This document shows positions 1,749-7,807 of a stretch of DNA of 9,230 nucleotides, piece after piece; position 1 is the stretch's first letter, and each line of letters begins with the position of its first letter. The stretch lies in the IMG/VR virus record IMGVR_UViG_2740892218_000012. The stretch is one strand, 5' to 3'. The DNA comes from a virus. Taxonomy: Duplodnaviria; Heunggongvirae; Uroviricota; Caudoviricetes. The notes beneath the pieces are model-generated. The model saw only the letters and a program-made list of their open reading frames with translations, had not been told where the DNA came from and did no database searches. The translations under genes were made by a program, and so were the position numbers.

Positions 1749-2174
1749 TTAGTGCATCACCACGGCATTTCCTGCCGGGCCACCGCGATTAATCTGGTTG
1801 AAACCAGCAATTGCCACCGCAATAAAATCATCTGCATCCCTCACCAGCCGCTCCCGCGTCTCCAGCAGCTCCCGAAAATAGGCTGAACTGTGACTGCGCA
1901 TTCGGGCCACCAGCAGAGGCGGCATTGCCTTTTCGATCGCAGGTAACAACGCCTGAATTTTTTCAACCGCATCAGGAGTGTCTTTCTCTACCCAGCGGAA
2001 AATTTTCTGGGTATTGCGAGCCAGGGCTTCCGGATGGCTGTTGTCGTACAGTTCAGGAAACGTCATACCCAGTTCGAAATACGCTTTGGTAATTTTCGCA
2101 GTCGGTACTTTTTCTCCATCCGGATGCGCCCAGGCATTCATCGCCATGCGGATGTGTTCATGCTTGATTTTCAT
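1749..2174 (-). CDS. ydaT: YdaT-like protein (reported as a toxin and as a CII-like regulator in Rac-type prophages)
   Basis: 141-aa ORF directly downstream of the Cro-like gene, with AAGAGG SD 8 nt upstream of the ATG. Size and position match Rac ydaT (140 aa). Recognised from memory of the family, not by search. Confidence 0.65.
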   Translation of the reverse strand: MKIKHEHIRMAMNAWAHPDGEKVPTAKITKAYFELGMTFPELYDNSHPEALARNTQKIFRWVEKDTPDAVEKIQALLPAIEKAMPPLLVARMRSHSSAYFRELLETRERLVRDADDFIAVAIAGFNQINRGGPAGNAVVMH

Positions 2175-2196
2175 GAATCATTTGCCTCTTGATGTT

Positions 2197-2493
2197 TCAG
2201 GTATGATCAAATGAGGATTTGTTACTGTCATTTAGTTGCTTCACTGACATATTCTGCGAATAACATGCCGAACGTCGTAAATATGACCAGTCAATATCAG
2301 GACGAAGTTCTTCGCACAGAACGTCACCTCTTGTTGCACGTTCAATTGCTGGACATCTCTCTGCAGGCAATTGACGTACCCCTTTGATCCATTGATTTAC
2401 GCTTGGAGGTGATACACCTAAAAGCCTAGCCATTGCTGATTGCCCACCGACAACAGCACAAGCTCGCTTGAATGAATAGTTCTCTTTTTTCAT
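2197..2493 (-). CDS. ydaS: Cro-type HTH regulator (YdaS-like)
   Basis: 98-aa ORF divergent from the repressor gene. HTH segment QSAMARLLGVSPPSVNQWIKG. GGAG SD 8 nt upstream of the ATG. Size matches Rac YdaS (98 aa). Confidence 0.7.
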   Translation of the reverse strand: MKKENYSFKRACAVVGGQSAMARLLGVSPPSVNQWIKGVRQLPAERCPAIERATRGDVLCEELRPDIDWSYLRRSACYSQNMSVKQLNDSNKSSFDHT

Positions 2494-2519
2494 CGAATGA
2501 ACTCCAAAAACACACAGAG

Positions 2520-2589
2520 ATATTAGGCGACGCCTAATACTAATGTCAATAGGCTATGCCTAATGCAGTAAGAATAGGGATTGCCTAAT
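2520..2589. promoter_or_regulatory. OR-like operator cluster (three 17-bp palindromes ATTAGGC-N3-GCCTAAT) overlapping a minus-strand promoter for the cro-like gene
   Basis: O1 2522..2538 attaggcgacgcctaat (perfect; extends to a 19-bp perfect palindrome 2521..2539). O2 2548..2564 aataggctatgcctaat. O3 2573..2589 aatagggattgcctaat. Starts are 26 and 25 bp apart. Minus-strand promoter: -35 TTGACA (plus 2544..2549), 18-bp spacer, -10 TAATAT (plus 2520..2525), overlapping O1. Confidence 0.6.
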
Positions 2590-2616
2590 ACAATGAGCAT
2601 AGGAGAATATTAAGCA

Positions 2617-3093
2617 ATGCTTAGTGGTAAAGACTTAGGCCGAGCAATAGAGCAGGCCATTAACAAAAAAATCGCATCGGGATCCGTCAAATCAAAGGCG
2701 GAGGTCGCTCGCCACTTCAAAGTCCAACCACCATCAATCTATGACTGGATTAAGAAAGGCTCCATAAGTAAAGATAAACTTCCAGAATTATGGCGTTTCT
2801 TTTCTGATGTTGTTGGTCCAGAGCATTGGGGGCTTAACGAATACCCCATACCAACCCCCACCAACTCAGATACAAAAAGTGAACTTTTAGACATAAACAA
2901 CCTTTATCAGGCAGCCTCTGATGAAATAAGAGCGATTGTAGCTTTCCTGTTATCAGGAAATGCTACAGAACCAGACTGGGTTGACCACGATGTTCGCGCC
3001 TACATAGCAGCGATGGAAATGAAAGTTGGTAAGTATCTGAAAGTTCTAGAATCTGAACGGAAAAGCCAGAACATCACAAAAACTGGAACTTAA
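2617..3093 (+). CDS. racR: Prophage repressor (RacR-like, CI analogue)
   Basis: 158-aa ORF between the two operator clusters, divergent from the cro-like gene. HTH segment SKAEVARHFKVQPPSIYDWIKKG. AGGAG SD 11 nt upstream of the ATG. Size equals Rac RacR (158 aa). Confidence 0.75.
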   Translation: MLSGKDLGRAIEQAINKKIASGSVKSKAEVARHFKVQPPSIYDWIKKGSISKDKLPELWRFFSDVVGPEHWGLNEYPIPTPTNSDTKSELLDINNLYQAASDEIRAIVAFLLSGNATEPDWVDHDVRAYIAAMEMKVGKYLKVLESERKSQNITKTGT

Positions 3094-3188
3094 ACTTATA
3101 TGGTCTGACGGAAAACTCCTGGATTCCGTTATTTAATCCCTCCCATCACTTTTTTCATTCGCATCACCTATTGGGTTACGCCCAGAAC

Positions 3189-3232
3189 ATTAGGCAAAGC
3201 CTATTGACAATCAATTAGGCATTACCTATAGT
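3189..3232 (+). promoter_or_regulatory. pL-like sigma70 promoter (TTGACA-17-TATAGT) overlapped by two operator palindromes (OL-like)
   Basis: -35 TTGACA at 3204..3209, exact 17-bp spacer, -10 TATAGT at 3227..3232. Operators: 3189..3205 attaggcaaagcctatt and 3214..3230 attaggcattacctata, same half-site as the OR sites, 25-bp phasing, covering the -35 and -10. Confidence 0.6.
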
Positions 3233-3409
3233 TCCAGCATGCCACCCACCCCGCCCCACAGCACGCAGGGCAATACTTCGAGTTACCAGGCAGTGGTCAG
3301 GGGTTAAGTAGCCAGCCCGAGGCGTAAGAACATGACGGCAGGGTTCAACTTTAACTATGCAGCAGGTTTTTGTTCCGCTACCCCGGCGTTAAGGGGAAAT
3401 GAGGTCAGC

Positions 3410-3562
3410 ATGGATACTATCGATCTTGGCAACAACGAATCTCTGGTGTACGGCGTGTTTCCCAACCAGGACGGCACGTTCACCGCGATGACGTATACCA
3501 AAAGTAAAACGTTTAAAACCGAAGCTGGCGCGCATCGCTGGTTAGCAAGAAACTCTGACTGA
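3410..3562 (+). CDS. ydaF: Small phage protein (YdaF-like, DUF1391-type), 50 aa; in-frame alternative start at 3332
   Basis: GAGG at 3401..3404, 5 nt upstream of the ATG at 3410; reads MDTIDLGNNESLVYGVFPNQDGTFTAMTYTKSKTFKTEAGAHRWLARNSD. First gene after the pL-like promoter. The track ORF 3332..3562 is the same frame extended to an upstream ATG with a weaker RBS. Confidence 0.5.
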   Translation: MDTIDLGNNESLVYGVFPNQDGTFTAMTYTKSKTFKTEAGAHRWLARNSD

Positions 3563-3573
3563 TGAGGTTGACG

Positions 3574-4212
3574 ATGGAATTTAAAGATTTACCTACTTCA
3601 ATCCAGGAGATTGCAGCACACACACTTCGTCATCGTCTGAACGAACTTGCATTGGAATCGGTAACGAAAAAAGACACTGATAATATGGCTCGTAATGTGC
3701 GCGATGCGTTTACCGGATTGTATTTCTGTGCGTCTGTAAATAAACACGACTCAGAGAGTGTGGCAAATAAAATTGCAGAAACGACAGCGCAAAACATCAA
3801 TACGAAACCAACGGAAGAAGAAATTGATCAGTTTGCTCATGATGCTGGTTTAAAAAACAAGAAAGAAAAATCGCCATATGCGGGGAACATGTTTGTTTAT
3901 GACAATCTCATCAGAATTCGTGGCGAAATTCCGGCGGAATACCTGGCAAGAGTCCATCAGGCATTGCTTAAAAATCTGGAAACAGAATTATTTGATGGCA
4001 ACACTAACGGTTTCTTCATGGTATCAGGCCTTGAGAAAGACTGGGATGCAGAAAAACGCTGGAATGTTGCTACATGGTTATTCAGTAACAGAGCCGCTGC
4101 TCTGGAAGCTTCGGCATGTATTTGCGGCCTGTTCTTAACAGACCACAAATATAATCTGGATGTGTACAGTTATATTTACGCTGAACACGGTCCGCTCTGG
4201 ATTGACTGGTAA
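3574..4212 (+). CDS. Hypothetical protein, 212 aa, no recognisable motif (accessory cargo)
   Basis: GAGG at 3564..3567, 6 nt upstream of the ATG at 3574 (the track ORF starts at the in-frame ATG at 3562, overlapping the upstream stop as TGATG). Long uninterrupted ORF with ordinary amino-acid composition, visibly AT-richer than neighbours. I could not assign it to any family from sequence alone. Confidence 0.6.
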   Translation: MEFKDLPTSIQEIAAHTLRHRLNELALESVTKKDTDNMARNVRDAFTGLYFCASVNKHDSESVANKIAETTAQNINTKPTEEEIDQFAHDAGLKNKKEKSPYAGNMFVYDNLIRIRGEIPAEYLARVHQALLKNLETELFDGNTNGFFMVSGLEKDWDAEKRWNVATWLFSNRAAALEASACICGLFLTDHKYNLDVYSYIYAEHGPLWIDW

Positions 4213-4422
4213 TTATAAGGAAACACCAGCAGGGCCGCGGCGACCAACAGAACGATTAAAATCAATAATGCCATTATAAAGGACATTATTTAATTTATCG
4301 TCGAATGCTGATTCTGTGAGCCTCAACTCTGAATGAGTTTTTAATAACCCTGATTGCCTGAGTTGATTTACTAGGCATTCAATCTGTTTTTCAATAAGCG
4401 GATTTCTTTTTTTGTTTGGCAT
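4213..4422 (-). CDS. Hypothetical small protein, 69 aa (73 aa if the upstream ATG at 4434 is used), convergent with the 212-aa ORF
   Basis: Minus-strand ATG at 4422..4420 preceded by GGAGG (plus 4428..4432, 5-nt spacer). Stop (plus TTA 4213..4215) abuts the TAA stop of the plus-strand gene (4210..4212). Lies in AT-rich DNA. No convincing promoter found, so confidence is limited. Confidence 0.4.
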   Translation of the reverse strand: MPNKKRNPLIEKQIECLVNQLRQSGLLKTHSELRLTESAFDDKLNNVLYNGIIDFNRSVGRRGPAGVSL

Positions 4423-4758
4423 TTTATCCTCCATTGAGGTTCTGGGTTAAAAATGGAGACCAACACGCTGTCACGTGTGGTCGTGCGCCGGACACGGATA
4501 AGAATCCGGTACTGACAGTTTACTGAAAGGATATATCCCTGAAAAGCCAGGGCATAACGCGAAAGCACACGGCGAAATTGGTCTCTCTGTACGGTGTCGT
4601 TAAATTTAATTCGACCGTGCGCTTCCGGTTGTGGCACTCCGCGAAATGGCGCGGCGGTAAGTATGGCGGGGTTATTCCTTCCCCGTTGAGGACACCGGGT
4701 TGTCAGGTTGACCATACGCTTAAGTGACAACCCCGCTACAACGCCCTCTGTTATCAAT

Positions 4759-4816
4759 TTTCTGGTGGCGTTTGGCGGTATCAGTTTTACTCCGTGACTG
4801 CTCTGCCGCCCTTTTT
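4759..4816 (+). ncRNA. dicF: DicF-like small RNA with intrinsic terminator (cell-division-inhibiting sRNA family of lambdoid prophages)
   Basis: Sequence tttctggtggcgtttggcggtatcagttttactccgtgactgctctgccgccc followed by TTTTT closely matches my recollection of E. coli DicF (UUUCUGGUGACGUUUGGCGG...CUGCCGCCC). It lies in an ORF-free stretch of the pL-like operon, upstream of a kil-type gene. Confidence 0.6.
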
Positions 4817-4990
4817 AAAGTGAATTTTGTGATGCGGTGAATGCGGCTAAGCGCACGCGGAACAGTTAAAACCAAAAACAGTGTTATGGGTGGATTCTCT
4901 GTATCCGGCGTTAATTGTTAACTGGTTAACGTCACCTGGAGGCACCAGGCACCGCATCAACAAAGTTCATTTGTAAAAATGGAGATAATT

Positions 4991-5212
4991 ATGATTGCTC
5001 ATCACTTCGGAACTGATGAGATTCCTCGTCAGTGCGTGACTCCCGGTGATTATGTTATTCATAAAGGAAGAACATATATTGCTTCGGTAAACAACATTAA
5101 AAAACAACGGCTCTATATTCGTGATTTTTCCACACAACACTGTATTAAGGAAACCATGATTAAAGTCTTCCTTGGTCGTGATGGTTTACCTGTAAAAGCA
5201 GAGTCATGGTGA
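4991..5212 (+). CDS. kilR: Kil-type small protein (KilR-like host killing/cell-division inhibitor), 73 aa
   Basis: GGAG at 4981..4984, 6 nt upstream of the ATG at 4991 (the track ORF starts 4 codons earlier at 4979, with no SD). Product [21 protein letters not shown]...[12 protein letters not shown]. Size equals Rac KilR (73 aa), and position (between sieB-slot cargo and the exonuclease) matches. Confidence 0.6.
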
Positions 5213-5335
5213 ACAGTAATAAAATAACTGCCACAATACGACATTCAGCTTAATGAATACATCAGATTTGATTCTTATATGCCAGCAATGGCAGGGATTT
5301 GTTCATCCTTAAATCTGTCATGAGGTTAAAACAAA

Positions 5336-7807
5336 ATGAGTAAAGTCTTTATTTGCGCCGCCATTCCGGACGAACAGGCAATAAAGGAAGAAGGTGCAAT
5401 TGCTGTAGCCACTGCCATTGAAGCCGGTGACGAACGCCGCGCCCGTGCCAAATTTACCTGGCAATTCCTGGAGCAATATCCGGCTGCTCAGGACTGCGCT
5501 TATAAATTTCTTGTCTGCGAGGATAAACCCGGCATGCCCCGCCCTGCTATCGACTCCTGGGATACCGAATATATGCAGGAAAACCGCTGGGATGAGGAAT
5601 CCGCTTCCTTTATTCCGGTCGAACCAGAATCCGATCCGATGAACGTCAATTTTGACAAGCTGTCCCTTGAAGTACAGAACGCGGTCCTGGTTAAGTTCGG
5701 TACATGTGAAAACATCACCGTTGATATGGTGATTAGTGCTCAGGAATTACTGCAGGAGGACATGGCAACATTCGACGGGCATATCGTTGAGGCATTGATG
5801 AAAATGCCTGAAGTTAACGTCATGTATTCAGAGCTTAAGCTGCTCGCCATCGGGTGGGTTAAACATAAATGTAAGCCGGGTGCAAAATGGCCTGAGATCC
5901 AGACAGAATTACGCACCTGGAAAAAACGTCGCGAAGCCGAACGCAAAGAAACCGGGAAATACACGTCTGTTGTTGATCTTGCCCGCGCCAGAGTCAACCG
6001 GCAGAACACTGAAAATTCAGTAGCGAAAATCCCCCCAGCCACTGCCACCATTCGTCGCGAATACAAGCAGACATGGAAAACACTGGATGATGAACTGGCC
6101 TACGCTCTGTGGCCTGGTGACATTGATACCGGAAACATTGACGGCAGCATCCATCGCTGGGCAAAAAATGAAGTTATCGACAACGACCGCGAAGACTGGA
6201 AGCGTATCTCGGCATCAATGCGCAAACAGCCTGATGCCCTTCGCTACGACCGCCAGACTATTTTTGGCCTTGTCCGTGAACGTCCGATCGACATTCACAA
6301 AGCCCCTGTGGCACTGAACAAATACATTACTGAATACCTGACTACAAAGGGCGTGTTTGAAGATGAAGGAACAAATCAGAGCGCAACTGATACTCTCTCG
6401 TCGCCAGTACCAGAAACTGATGCAGTGGAAACGGCAATTCCGGACAACGAAAAAACCGAATGCAAAGTGGAAGTCGAACCATCTGTAGAGCGTGAAGGGC
6501 CGTTCTACTTCCTCTTCACCGACAAGGATGGCGAAAAATATGGTCGCGCAAACAAACTTTCTGGTCTGAATAAGGCGCTGACTGCAGGGGCTACTGAAAT
6601 CACGAAAGAAGAATATTTTGCCCGCAAAAACGGTACATACTCAGGTTCACAACAAAATACTGGTGCATCTGACACGACCGCACAACCAGAGCCGGTAAAA
6701 GTTACCGCTGAAGAAGTAAACAAAATTATGCAGGCAGCCAATATCAGCCAGCCTGACGCCGATAAGTTGCTTGCTGCCTCTCGCGGAGAATTTGTTGCAG
6801 GGATTAGCGACCCGAATGATCCGAAATGGGTGAAGGGGATTGAAACCCGCGACTCTGTAAACCAGAACCAGCAAGAATCGGAACAGAACGACCAGAAAAC
6901 GGAACAAAACAGCCCAAATGCGCAACAAAACGAGCCAGAAACGAAACAGGTTGAACCAGTAGCGCAACAGGAGCCGGAAAAAGCCTGCACCGCCTGCGGT
7001 CAGACCGGCGGCGGTAGCTGCCCTGATTGTGGTGCGGTGATGGGCGACGCAACATACCAGGAAATATTCGATGAAGAGAATCAGCCTGAAGTTCAGGAAA
7101 ATGATCCGGAGGAAATGGAAGGCACTGCGCATCAGCACAAGGAGAACACTGGCGGCAATCAGCATCATGCCAGCGATAGTGAAACTGGCGAGGCGTCAGA
7201 TCCCTTAATTAAGGCGAACGGTCATCATAATCTCACATCCACCAGCAGAGCGGGGATTCATCTGATGATCGACCTTGAAACCATGGGAAAAAATCCTGAT
7301 GCCCCGATTATCTCAATAGGTGCAATATTTTTCGATCCGCAAACCGGAGATATGGGACCGGAATTTAGTAAGACTGTCGATCTGGAAACTGCTGGCGGAG
7401 TCATTGATCGGGACACCATTAAATGGTGGCTTAAGCAATCACGCGAAGCGCAATCTGCCATTATGACCGATGAAATCCCGTTAGATGATGCACTGTTACA
7501 ATTGCGGGAATTTATCGACGAAAACTCCGGTGAATTTTTTGTTCAGGTCTGGGGAAATGGAGCAAACTTCGACAACACGATTTTGCGCCGTTCATACGAA
7601 CGGCAGGGGATCCCCTGCCCGTGGCGTTACTACAACGATCGCGATATACGCACAATCGTTGAGCTGGGGAAAGCCATAGACTTCGATGCCAGAACTGCTA
7701 TCCCATTCGAAGGTGAGCGCCATAATGCACTTGATGACGCTCGTTACCAGGCAAAATACGTTTCAGCTATCTGGCAAAAACTGATCCCGAGTCAGGCTGA
7801 TTTTTAA
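5336..7807 (+). CDS. Large prophage exonuclease, 823 aa: N-terminal region of unknown function, acidic Q/E/N-rich linker, CxxC-x7-CxxC zinc-ribbon motif, C-terminal DnaQ-like DEDDh 3'-5' exonuclease domain
   Basis: C-terminal motifs MIDLETMG (Exo I, DxE), WGNGANFDNTIL (Exo II) and HNALDDARY (Exo III, H-x4-D) are diagnostic of the DEDDh fold. CTACGQTGGGSCPDCG is encoded at about 6986..7030. Occupies the exo/recE slot of the pL operon; such genes are often auto-annotated exodeoxyribonuclease VIII. Confidence 0.85.
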   Translation: MSKVFICAAIPDEQAIKEEGAIAVATAIEAGDERRARAKFTWQFLEQYPAAQDCAYKFLVCEDKPGMPRPAIDSWDTEYMQENRWDEESASFIPVEPESDPMNVNFDKLSLEVQNAVLVKFGTCENITVDMVISAQELLQEDMATFDGHIVEALMKMPEVNVMYSELKLLAIGWVKHKCKPGAKWPEIQTELRTWKKRREAERKETGKYTSVVDLARARVNRQNTENSVAKIPPATATIRREYKQTWKTLDDELAYALWPGDIDTGNIDGSIHRWAKNEVIDNDREDWKRISASMRKQPDALRYDRQTIFGLVRERPIDIHKAPVALNKYITEYLTTKGVFEDEGTNQSATDTLSSPVPETDAVETAIPDNEKTECKVEVEPSVEREGPFYFLFTDKDGEKYGRANKLSGLNKALTAGATEITKEEYFARKNGTYSGSQQNTGASDTTAQPEPVKVTAEEVNKIMQAANISQPDADKLLAASRGEFVAGISDPNDPKWVKGIETRDSVNQNQQESEQNDQKTEQNSPNAQQNEPETKQVEPVAQQEPEKACTACGQTGGGSCPDCGAVMGDATYQEIFDEENQPEVQENDPEEMEGTAHQHKENTGGNQHHASDSETGEASDPLIKANGHHNLTSTSRAGIHLMIDLETMGKNPDAPIISIGAIFFDPQTGDMGPEFSKTVDLETAGGVIDRDTIKWWLKQSREAQSAIMTDEIPLDDALLQLREFIDENSGEFFVQVWGNGANFDNTILRRSYERQGIPCPWRYYNDRDIRTIVELGKAIDFDARTAIPFEGERHNALDDARYQAKYVSAIWQKLIPSQADF

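Follow-up and report, generated by a model that had tools for sequence, protein, structure and literature searches.

The window analyzed here, the whole 9,230-nucleotide (nt) stretch of the IMG/VR record IMGVR_UViG_2740892218_000012 (Caudoviricetes), contains a cassette of two convergent genes, here called X and Y, between a DUF1391 gene and the gene for the small RNA (sRNA) DicF. By comparison with related prophages, this cassette is the "C-domain/69-aa" allele of a locus bounded on one side by a segment encoding the N-terminal module (N-module) of X and on the other by an antisense candidate promoter and leader belonging to Y, because other alleles keep the N-module and the leader while swapping the tail of X and the small gene in the place of Y (the cargo) jointly. 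The locus is apparently undescribed; it is a widespread, polymorphic, two-gene locus, antisense to the early-left operon, in many Escherichia coli and Salmonella prophages. Its general kind is known, as it is a prophage accessory (moron) locus at the sieB slot. What is new is the modularity of X, the candidate promoter and structured leader of Y, and the occurrence of that leader in front of at least 12 unrelated small open reading frames (ORFs). A preliminary description of the two genes, made from the DNA letters alone, overlooked both the modularity and the shared leader.

The convergent gene pair and its distribution

Gene X (positions 3574..4212, plus strand) encodes 212 amino acids (aa) and falls in phrog_2151 (1.8e-145). 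A GAGG Shine-Dalgarno sequence (SD) lies upstream of 3574, and RefSeq uses the same ATG; an upstream ATG at 3562 would give 216 aa. Gene Y (4213..4422, minus strand; phrog_4274, 1.4e-51) has a GGAGG SD at 4428-4432 and encodes 69 aa, the form used by RefSeq; a 73-aa form starting at 4434 would be without an SD. The stop codons abut exactly, the TAA of X at 4210-4212 being followed by TTA (TAA on the minus strand) at 4213-4215. The preliminary description had placed both ORFs, their SDs, the junction of the stops and the flanks (the DUF1391 gene upstream, DicF and kil downstream) just as we find them. Judged from their sequences, both ORFs are real genes.

The protein encoded by X is modular. 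Residues 1-60 (3574-3753) form a helical N-module that is constant among alleles, residues 61-97 (3754-3864) a linker, and residues 98-212 (3865-4209, followed by the stop at 4210-4212) an acidic alpha/beta domain of 115 aa, the C-domain, all on the plus strand. An exhaustive profile search of 1.84 billion representatives returns two distant relatives of the C-domain and otherwise only proteins with the N-module. Dozens of the latter, 42-201 aa long, have the N-module alone in common, their tails being unrelated, and residues 1-55/75 of X also match four further PHROG families. Among 74 IMG/VR prophage loci retrieved with Y, the identity of the N-module (51-100%) varies independently of that of the C-domain (75-100%), and recombination breakpoints therefore lie inside X. 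In Salmonella loci L008-L010, an in-frame deletion removes the N-terminal 95 residues of X and leaves the C-domain ORF and the Y ORF intact.

The ratio of nonsynonymous to synonymous substitution (dN/dS) is 0.12-0.20 for the C-terminal 115 residues of X and 0.4-0.6 for the first 60 residues, and the C-domain is by this measure under strong purifying selection. In one C-domain homolog (P0176), a Cro/CI-type helix-turn-helix (HTH; Pfam HTH_3, 26.2 bits, cutoff 23) is inserted ahead of the domain, which suggests that the C-domain is a binding or sensor domain, not an enzyme; in the alignment, no catalytic-type polar residue pattern is invariant between the two C-domain clades. The representative search also contains a protein of 5212 aa (P0185) in which nine separate stretches match positions 17-71 of the N-module profile (E 1e-8).

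Y is a basic, helical protein with the invariant motifs KQIEC..QL..SGLLK and a GRRGPAG tail. When the window is compared with a second E. coli clade and with Salmonella, its dN/dS is 0.15-0.26 with an excess of third-position changes, the lowest value of the six frames in the sole open frame, so that the small ORF, for which the preliminary description had raised the question, is under purifying selection. The isoelectric points of Y and the C-domain are 9.7 and 4.9, respectively, and those of their counterparts in the distant clade described below are 9.5 and 4.7. Y is hydrophilic (grand average of hydropathy -0.53); its maximum 19-residue Kyte-Doolittle value is 0.22 and that of X 1.16, consistent with the earlier impression that neither protein has a transmembrane segment. 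Pfam, NCBIfam, PDB sequence and fold searches give no HTH or other DNA-binding family match for Y. A run of seven A residues at 4404-4410, in AACAAAAAAAGA (Y codons 3-6), is shortened to six in L067-L074, truncating Y at 17 aa with X intact, which could be simple decay or slippage-prone switching.

The two genes are inherited together across a wide range of elements. A query composed of the 3' half of X plus Y matches 600 of 5426 complete E. coli genomes (~11%), including many O157:H7, O26, O111 and O145 strains, and both parts are contiguous in 594 of the 600. The C-domain adjoins Y in all 74 IMG/VR loci, always in convergent orientation, and the stops abut exactly in 73. Salmonella has the pair, joined stop to stop in the same way, in a different integrative element beside pgm, which includes an integrase, an HTH repressor, Ash-like genes and a RecE-type exonuclease. 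A distant clade, found in Salmonella and IMG/VR with the C-domain profile, comprises proteins 203-220 aa long whose C-domain is 34-38% identical to that of X, the N-terminus ("MFNVKRNG...") being unrelated; each is faced by a convergent Y homolog (52-53% identical) that overlaps the 3' end of the X counterpart by 11 to about 53 nt. In about 700 loci we saw no intact C-domain or Y with a different partner, and in L095, where the C-domain is exchanged for an unrelated tail, the convergent ORF is exchanged too. Because the distant clade keeps both genes despite its different X N-terminus, the C-domain and Y are, on these comparisons, a unit, never apart even at ~35% and ~52% identity. The preliminary description had asked whether the ORFs move together between prophages and had regarded the cassette as exchangeable cargo; they do travel together, in E. 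coli genomes, IMG/VR loci and Salmonella, and the cassette behaves as such cargo.

Neither gene gains a function from Pfam, NCBIfam, PADLOC, PHROGs or the PDB, whether searched with single sequences or with the C-domain profile. Both proteins are uncharacterized, as had been proposed: Pfam, NCBIfam, PADLOC (PADLOC-DB v2, zero matches) and PDB sequences are empty for them, their PHROG families are of unknown function, and RefSeq labels both "hypothetical protein." Profile, PDB sequence and fold searches give the 212-aa protein no confident homology to a characterized one, and neither X nor Y is homologous to YdfB, YdaG or YdfC of K-12. Homologs are confined to Escherichia and Salmonella, with source names that are all "hypothetical" or "Ybl81." Isolated phages (50,697 records) contain no full X or Y, only the N-module, and two scans of GTDB species representatives recovered neither gene. 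We found no mention of the cassette in the literature, papers on dicBF regulation and prophage transcriptomics included; a UTI89 filamentation screen concerns the ydfABC type only.

Candidate promoter, leader and alternative cargoes of the small gene

Alignment of the DNA upstream of Y across clades, combined with RNAalifold, identifies a conserved 5' leader of ~90 nt with three hairpins (4423..4510, minus strand). It is non-coding and more conserved than either protein. Hairpin 1 (4488-4509, minus strand; CCGGAU..UCCGG) has a conserved 12-nt loop and a stem that is invariant apart from a C.G pair replaced by U.G in four sequences; one further pair is U.G, and the minus strand alone can pair these. 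The stem of hairpin 2 (4460-4480, minus strand) covaries, with at least six sequence versions that all keep the pairing, at 6-9 pairs. In the third hairpin, also on the minus strand, an anti-SD CUCCAU (4453-4458) pairs with AUGGAG (4429-4434), which overlaps the SD of Y. In PPompW-type copies the SD is AGGAGG and its partner CUCCUU, a compensatory change, and in L095 a U.A pair becomes a U.G wobble. The minimum free energy z-score against shuffled sequences is -2.8 for the minus strand and -1.6 for the plus strand. Because of the U.G pairs, the SD/anti-SD covariation and the better folding of the minus strand, the structure is assigned to that strand and thus to the mRNA of Y.

The window has a single copy of the hairpin-1 pattern, where 0.01 would be expected. 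Rfam 15 gives no match to the leader, even at E up to 10, and no sRNA family on the strand opposite Y; only DicF and a tRNA pass the gathering threshold in the window. Hairpin 2 was also considered as an intrinsic terminator and ruled out, as its T-run is not kept in distant clades. For the leader, a boxB/nut-like element or a CsrA site is a further conceivable interpretation. RNAduplex comparisons of the leader with the 5' region of X, DicF, DUF1391 and kil mRNA produced artefactual full-length duplexes and no clear signal.

A candidate sigma-70 promoter of Y lies at 4517..4545 on the minus strand, with a -35 element TTTTCA (4540-4545), a 17-nt spacer and a -10 element TAAACT (4517-4522), and would place the transcription start just 5' of hairpin 1. 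Every clade has a TATA-like -10 element (TATAAC, TATAGA or TATACC, some after TGn) 8-12 nt 5' of hairpin 1. The spacer contains a palindrome, GGATATATCC, that is not repeated at the pL-side operators; there is no repressor-operator-like repeat in common with the pL region, and inspection by eye shows no evident LexA box 5' of Y. No terminator-like site was detected between X and Y, nor anywhere in 3000-5000.

The same leader is associated with many other small genes. We find the hairpin-1 motif in at least 120 IMG/VR stretches and in 38 isolated phages, including phiP27, Stx phages, PPompW phages and Tritos. Under a simple SD/ATG rule applied to 119 leader copies, 51 precede an SD and an ORF of 30 aa or longer, and these ORFs divide into at least 12 unrelated families of 57-101 aa. 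Most cargo families face an N-module protein with a cargo-specific C-terminal part, the 3' ends overlapping by 11-66 nt. PPompW_EH2246, for example, has an alternative pair (135 aa plus 77 aa) in exactly this slot, upstream of dicB. All sister cargoes belong to PHROGs of unknown function or to none, and ten of them searched against PADLOC returned only noise (E of 0.014 or worse).

Several individual cargoes are of interest in their own right. A 94-aa sister cargo, MAKFTVRIELRD... (L147, L187, L191), matches Pfam GhoS at 21.2 bits (cutoff 21), and a 101-aa cargo (L189) is in the same PHROG, phrog_8894. GhoS is a type V antitoxin endoribonuclease. Salmonella L011/L014 carry two N-module/leader cassettes in tandem (6001-7600). 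The first is a 200-aa plus 69-aa pair; the second consists of a 119-aa N-module gene and, convergent with it and behind another copy of the leader, a 64-aa "MSEQ" ORF (phrog_4987). The "MSEQ" ORF (L011 7306-7500) and the 70-aa "MANLS" ORF of L095 (about 2595-2807, minus strand) have a common pattern by eye (..ELv..L......NNL......M..SD...NN......LK..), and the two cargoes may be distant homologs; BLASTP gave no link between them.

Leader remnants are found as well. In the Qin prophage of K-12 (L003, about 3550-3630, minus strand), hairpins 1 and 2 (stem CUCCAC/GUGGAG) lie between ydfC and dicF, and phage Tritos has the same remnant (L099, about 2022 onward). No SD or ORF follows the leader in either case, and no annotated feature covers the K-12 remnant.

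Setting in the early-left operon

The window covers the left arm of a lambdoid prophage of the Rac/Qin type that is integrated in E. coli beside a tRNA-Ser gene and mtfA; the early-left operon is taken to run along the plus strand. The order begins, on the minus strand, with replication genes and genes resembling ydaT and cro; next comes a RacR-like HTH repressor of 158 aa (2617-3093). A candidate early-left promoter of the pL/dicBp type, TTGACA-17-TATAGT (3204..3232, plus strand), is a consensus match only, at 11 of 12 positions, and is placed like dicBp upstream of ydfA in Qin (PMC10448788). Transcription of X would start from this strong promoter-like site. The first gene of the operon is the DUF1391 (YdfA/YdaF-like) gene (3410..3562, plus strand; Pfam PF07151, 1.2e-28), which corresponds to a RefSeq coding sequence at 5111-5263 of L001. 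DicF (4760..4811, plus strand; Rfam RF00039, 76.4 bits) lies downstream in the same early-left transcript and is followed by kil, a large exonuclease gene, xis, int and the tRNA. Given the position of DicF, early transcription must cross Y and its leader in antisense. In Qin, dicBp is repressed by DicA and, once derepressed, yields a polycistronic transcript from ydfA through dicF and beyond (PMC10448788).

The RacR-like repressor is short and has no obvious autocleavage/peptidase domain. For that reason induction of the prophage probably needs an antirepressor, by analogy with Rem, which serves this role for DicA in Qin (PMC10448788); no antirepressor was identified within the window. Variation is also seen at a second slot of this operon, located between the repressor gene and that for DUF1391. 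A RelB/RelE toxin-antitoxin pair is present there in L002 (4351-4822) and L006 (2725-3203) and absent from the window.

Just 5' of DicF is a perfect 9-bp inverted repeat, GGGTTGTCA-N19-TGACAACCC (4697-4733), which may be an RNA processing structure; its sequence is seemingly kept 5' of a 192-aa gene in Salmonella L015 (about 7300-7367). Between DicF and kil, the nearest annotated genome has dicB as a short pseudogene fragment (L001 6582-6665; about 4881-4964 in the window), unlike the Qin-type relatives, in which dicB-ydfD is intact.

The AT-richness that the preliminary description took as a mark of horizontal acquisition is real relative to the immediate flanks, with a GC fraction of 0.40-0.45 over 3600-4350 versus about 0.49-0.51, but is not peculiar to the cassette, as 2100-3150 (0.42-0.44) and 4950-5400 (0.37) are equally AT-rich.

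Possible function and comparison with known systems

While the architecture of the cassette is well supported, its function is not. The explanation we favor, tentatively and with somewhat less than even confidence, is a composite one: a polymorphic two-gene accessory locus, reciprocally expressed, that encodes a cognate pair acting in conflict. In the lysogen, the early operon would be repressed and Y transcribed from its own sigma-70-type promoter, with its translation gated by the SD-sequestering leader. Upon derepression, RNA polymerase would cross Y and the leader in antisense and, as there is no terminator between the genes, read-through would shut off Y, through collision and the formation of duplex RNA, during synthesis of X. 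The C-domain and Y would then be a cognate binding pair, effector and neutralizer, for which we count the complementary charge of the two, kept in the distant clade; either partner could be the effector. The pair would serve phage-host or phage-phage conflict (exclusion- or immunity-type functions), not core phage development.

Several observations weigh against this proposal. The promoter of Y is a weak match, below threshold in a promoter scan. The AlphaFold models of the two proteins are weak (pLDDT, the predicted local distance difference test score, of 58 and 60), and three fold searches with these low-confidence models gave no significant match. No ORF of at least 30 aa follows 67 of the 119 leader copies under the simple SD/ATG rule, so the leader may also have a cargo-independent role. 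Mutually exclusive expression would mean that the proteins seldom coexist, which is awkward for a binding pair unless Y outlasts induction. In addition, at least three lineages have an intact X beside a defective Y, which carries a frameshift just after the start in L067-L074, a frameshift near the tail in L012/L013 and an alteration near the 3' end in L091. X is frameshifted with Y intact in L085 and in cluster representatives P0157, P0158 and P0164, to which L086 and L160 may be added, and in L007 both are broken, X by an IS100 insertion and Y by an internal stop. Because each gene decays with its partner intact, neither is needed for the other to be tolerated. Finally, the linkage of X and Y could be purely structural, both genes lying between the N-module and leader as recombination anchors.

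It is possible, if less probable, that X and Y are simply independent morons co-inherited as a block between these anchors. The breakpoints inside X (between N-module and C-domain) and at the leader fit such an arrangement, as do the flanks common to all alleles and the decay of either gene alone, and some of the short X tails in other alleles could be read-through, not real domains. However, the pair persists at 35% and 52% identity, beside a different left flank (the alternative N-terminus) and in different element types, and such long adjacency of unrelated genes is unexpected in mosaic phage genomes. Both genes are moreover under purifying selection and keep their complementary charge, and their 3' ends abut or overlap in every allele.

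A toxin-antitoxin or abortive-infection system, which the preliminary description had suggested, is unlikely. X would be a host-toxic early protein and Y its lysogen antitoxin, or Y a conditional toxin or exclusion factor and X the antidote (compare SieB/Esc of P22). The co-varying variable pairs do resemble effector-immunity cassettes, the SD-sequestering leader resembles type I toxin mRNAs, and the neighboring Kil, DicB and DicF are host-toxic early genes (PMC10448788); the double inactivation in L007 and the GhoS score of the 94-aa sister cargo (21.2 versus 21 bits) also point this way. Against this, Pfam, PADLOC and NCBIfam detect no toxin or antitoxin domain in X or Y, the genes are convergent and do not form an operon, Y is hydrophilic, unlike type I toxins, and the C-domain clades have no invariant catalytic-type residues in common. 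The loss of Y with X intact in at least three lineages, and of X with Y intact in others, weakens a classical toxin-antitoxin assignment, since decay runs both ways, and argues against strict dependency within the pair.

We regard it as very unlikely that Y is a small DNA- or RNA-binding regulator, either an antirepressor or a Cro/Cox-like modulator of the lysis-lysogeny decision, and X an unrelated early protein. In its favor are the basic, helical character of Y with its conserved arginine-rich tail and the fusion of one C-domain homolog to an HTH; the short RacR-like repressor also probably makes induction dependent on an antirepressor, as in the Rem/DicA case (PMC10448788). However, the promoter and leader are common to at least 12 unrelated cargoes, which fits accessory functions and argues against a core regulator. 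Y also has no HTH or DNA-binding family match, is frameshifted in several otherwise intact copies, and its upstream region has no repressor-operator-like repeat in common with the pL region.

Scarcely credible is a role of the hairpins on the plus strand, in processing or antitermination of the DicF precursor transcript with the minus-strand ORF incidental: Watson-Crick stems could form on both strands, and K-12 Qin (between ydfC and dicF) and Tritos have hairpins 1 and 2 without an ORF, but Y is under purifying selection in its own frame, the U.G and C.G<->U.G pairs and the SD/anti-SD covariation fit the minus strand only, that strand folds better relative to shuffled sequences, the mapped RNase III site that yields the 190-nt DicF species is ~137 nt 5' of DicF whereas the leader is 250-340 nt 5' of it, and Salmonella elements keep the leader before other minus-strand ORFs.

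If the composite explanation, a reciprocally expressed conflict pair, is correct, switch-coupled modules of cognate effectors and neutralizers would be a new and easily mined source of small proteins acting on phage or host targets, and the leader would be a new case of RNA-level gating of lysogen-expressed genes, beside the medically relevant DicF/DicB/Kil region. The leader is present in well over a hundred prophage contigs as well as in the 38 isolated phages, and the hairpin-1 motif provides a simple handle for locating the cargo of this hotspot. We also consider a broader proposal, which seems to us rather doubtful: that the alleles together represent an unrecognized family of prophage conflict systems, in which an N-module with interchangeable effector domains is opposed by small cognate antisense neutralizers or exclusion factors behind a single shared riboregulatory leader, the two sides being expressed in opposite states of the switch. 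Such a family would occur in a large part of the lambdoid prophages of E. coli and Salmonella, O157:H7 prophages among them, and Qin of K-12 would retain a remnant. Even if X and Y are independent, the N-module and the leader bound a recombination hotspot, which explains lambdoid diversification at this position.

Among the closest known systems, the dicBF operon of Qin (ydfABC-dicF-dicB-ydfDE) matches the present one in layout and flanks: it likewise opens with a DUF1391 gene, has DicF further downstream and is preceded by a switch of the DicA/DicC or RacR type, and in K-12 it includes the leader remnant between ydfC and dicF. It differs in having ydfB and ydfC, which are non-homologous and both on the plus strand, in the place of X and Y.

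The analogy with sieB drawn in the preliminary description is borne out by position: sieB of Rac is convergent with ydaF, their 3' ends overlap, and it has the position and orientation of the 69-aa ORF. In Rac, lambda and P22, the superinfection exclusion (abortive infection) gene sieB occupies the same slot in the same orientation and runs opposite to the early-left operon; in Rac, as for Y here, it lies in the interval from the immunity region to kil. As cited in PMC7067206, sieB of P22 is controlled by an antisense RNA (sas), a translation-level precedent at this slot. There is no sequence or family relation, however, and Y (69 aa) is soluble and basic, whereas SieB of Rac (162 aa) is a membrane protein. 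The sieB of Rac also has no leader (no hairpin-1 match in L004), and sieB systems have no paired domain in the forward gene.

Among toxin-antitoxin systems, the mRNAs of type I toxins (hok, tisB, zorO, dinQ) resemble that of Y in having a structured 5' untranslated region that occludes the SD. Y itself, however, is hydrophilic and lacks a membrane helix, its partner in antisense is an early operon that codes for proteins, and no dedicated small antisense RNA gene was identified for it. The convergent overlap would give antisense RNA on the 3' end of the partner, as described for lambda OOP and cII (PMC7067206). Type II systems are co-directional, autoregulated operons, while X and Y are convergent and have no recognizable toxin or antitoxin domain; X is also kept intact with Y broken, an indirect argument, as X is probably repressed in lysogens. 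The type V pair GhoS/GhoT differs in that Y has no GhoS match in Pfam, only the 94-aa sister cargo reaching the cutoff.

Polymorphic toxin-immunity cassettes of the CdiA-CT/CdiI and Rhs-CT/RhsI type have a comparable layout, with a constant N-terminal and a variable C-terminal part (here the N-module in proteins of 42-220 aa) and a small cognate gene directly 3' that changes with the C-terminal part. In contrast to these, Y is convergent and has its own candidate promoter and leader, and X has no recognizable toxin, delivery or secretion domain, the X proteins being of 100-220 aa and encoded in a phage early operon.

The locus is most readily placed among prophage morons. Such accessory loci, which run antisense to lytic operons from a promoter of their own and are typically expressed in the lysogen, include STMMW_20121 of ST64B (Owen et al. 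2020, PMC7067206). Like these, Y is a small, exchangeable gene antisense to lytic genes with no evident role in core development, and its own transcription is predicted. It differs from typical morons in that the cassette has no detected terminator (3000-5000) and a GC content not distinct from that of other parts of the window, and in that at least 12 cargoes are found with one conserved leader, each coupled to an allele-specific domain of the opposing early gene.

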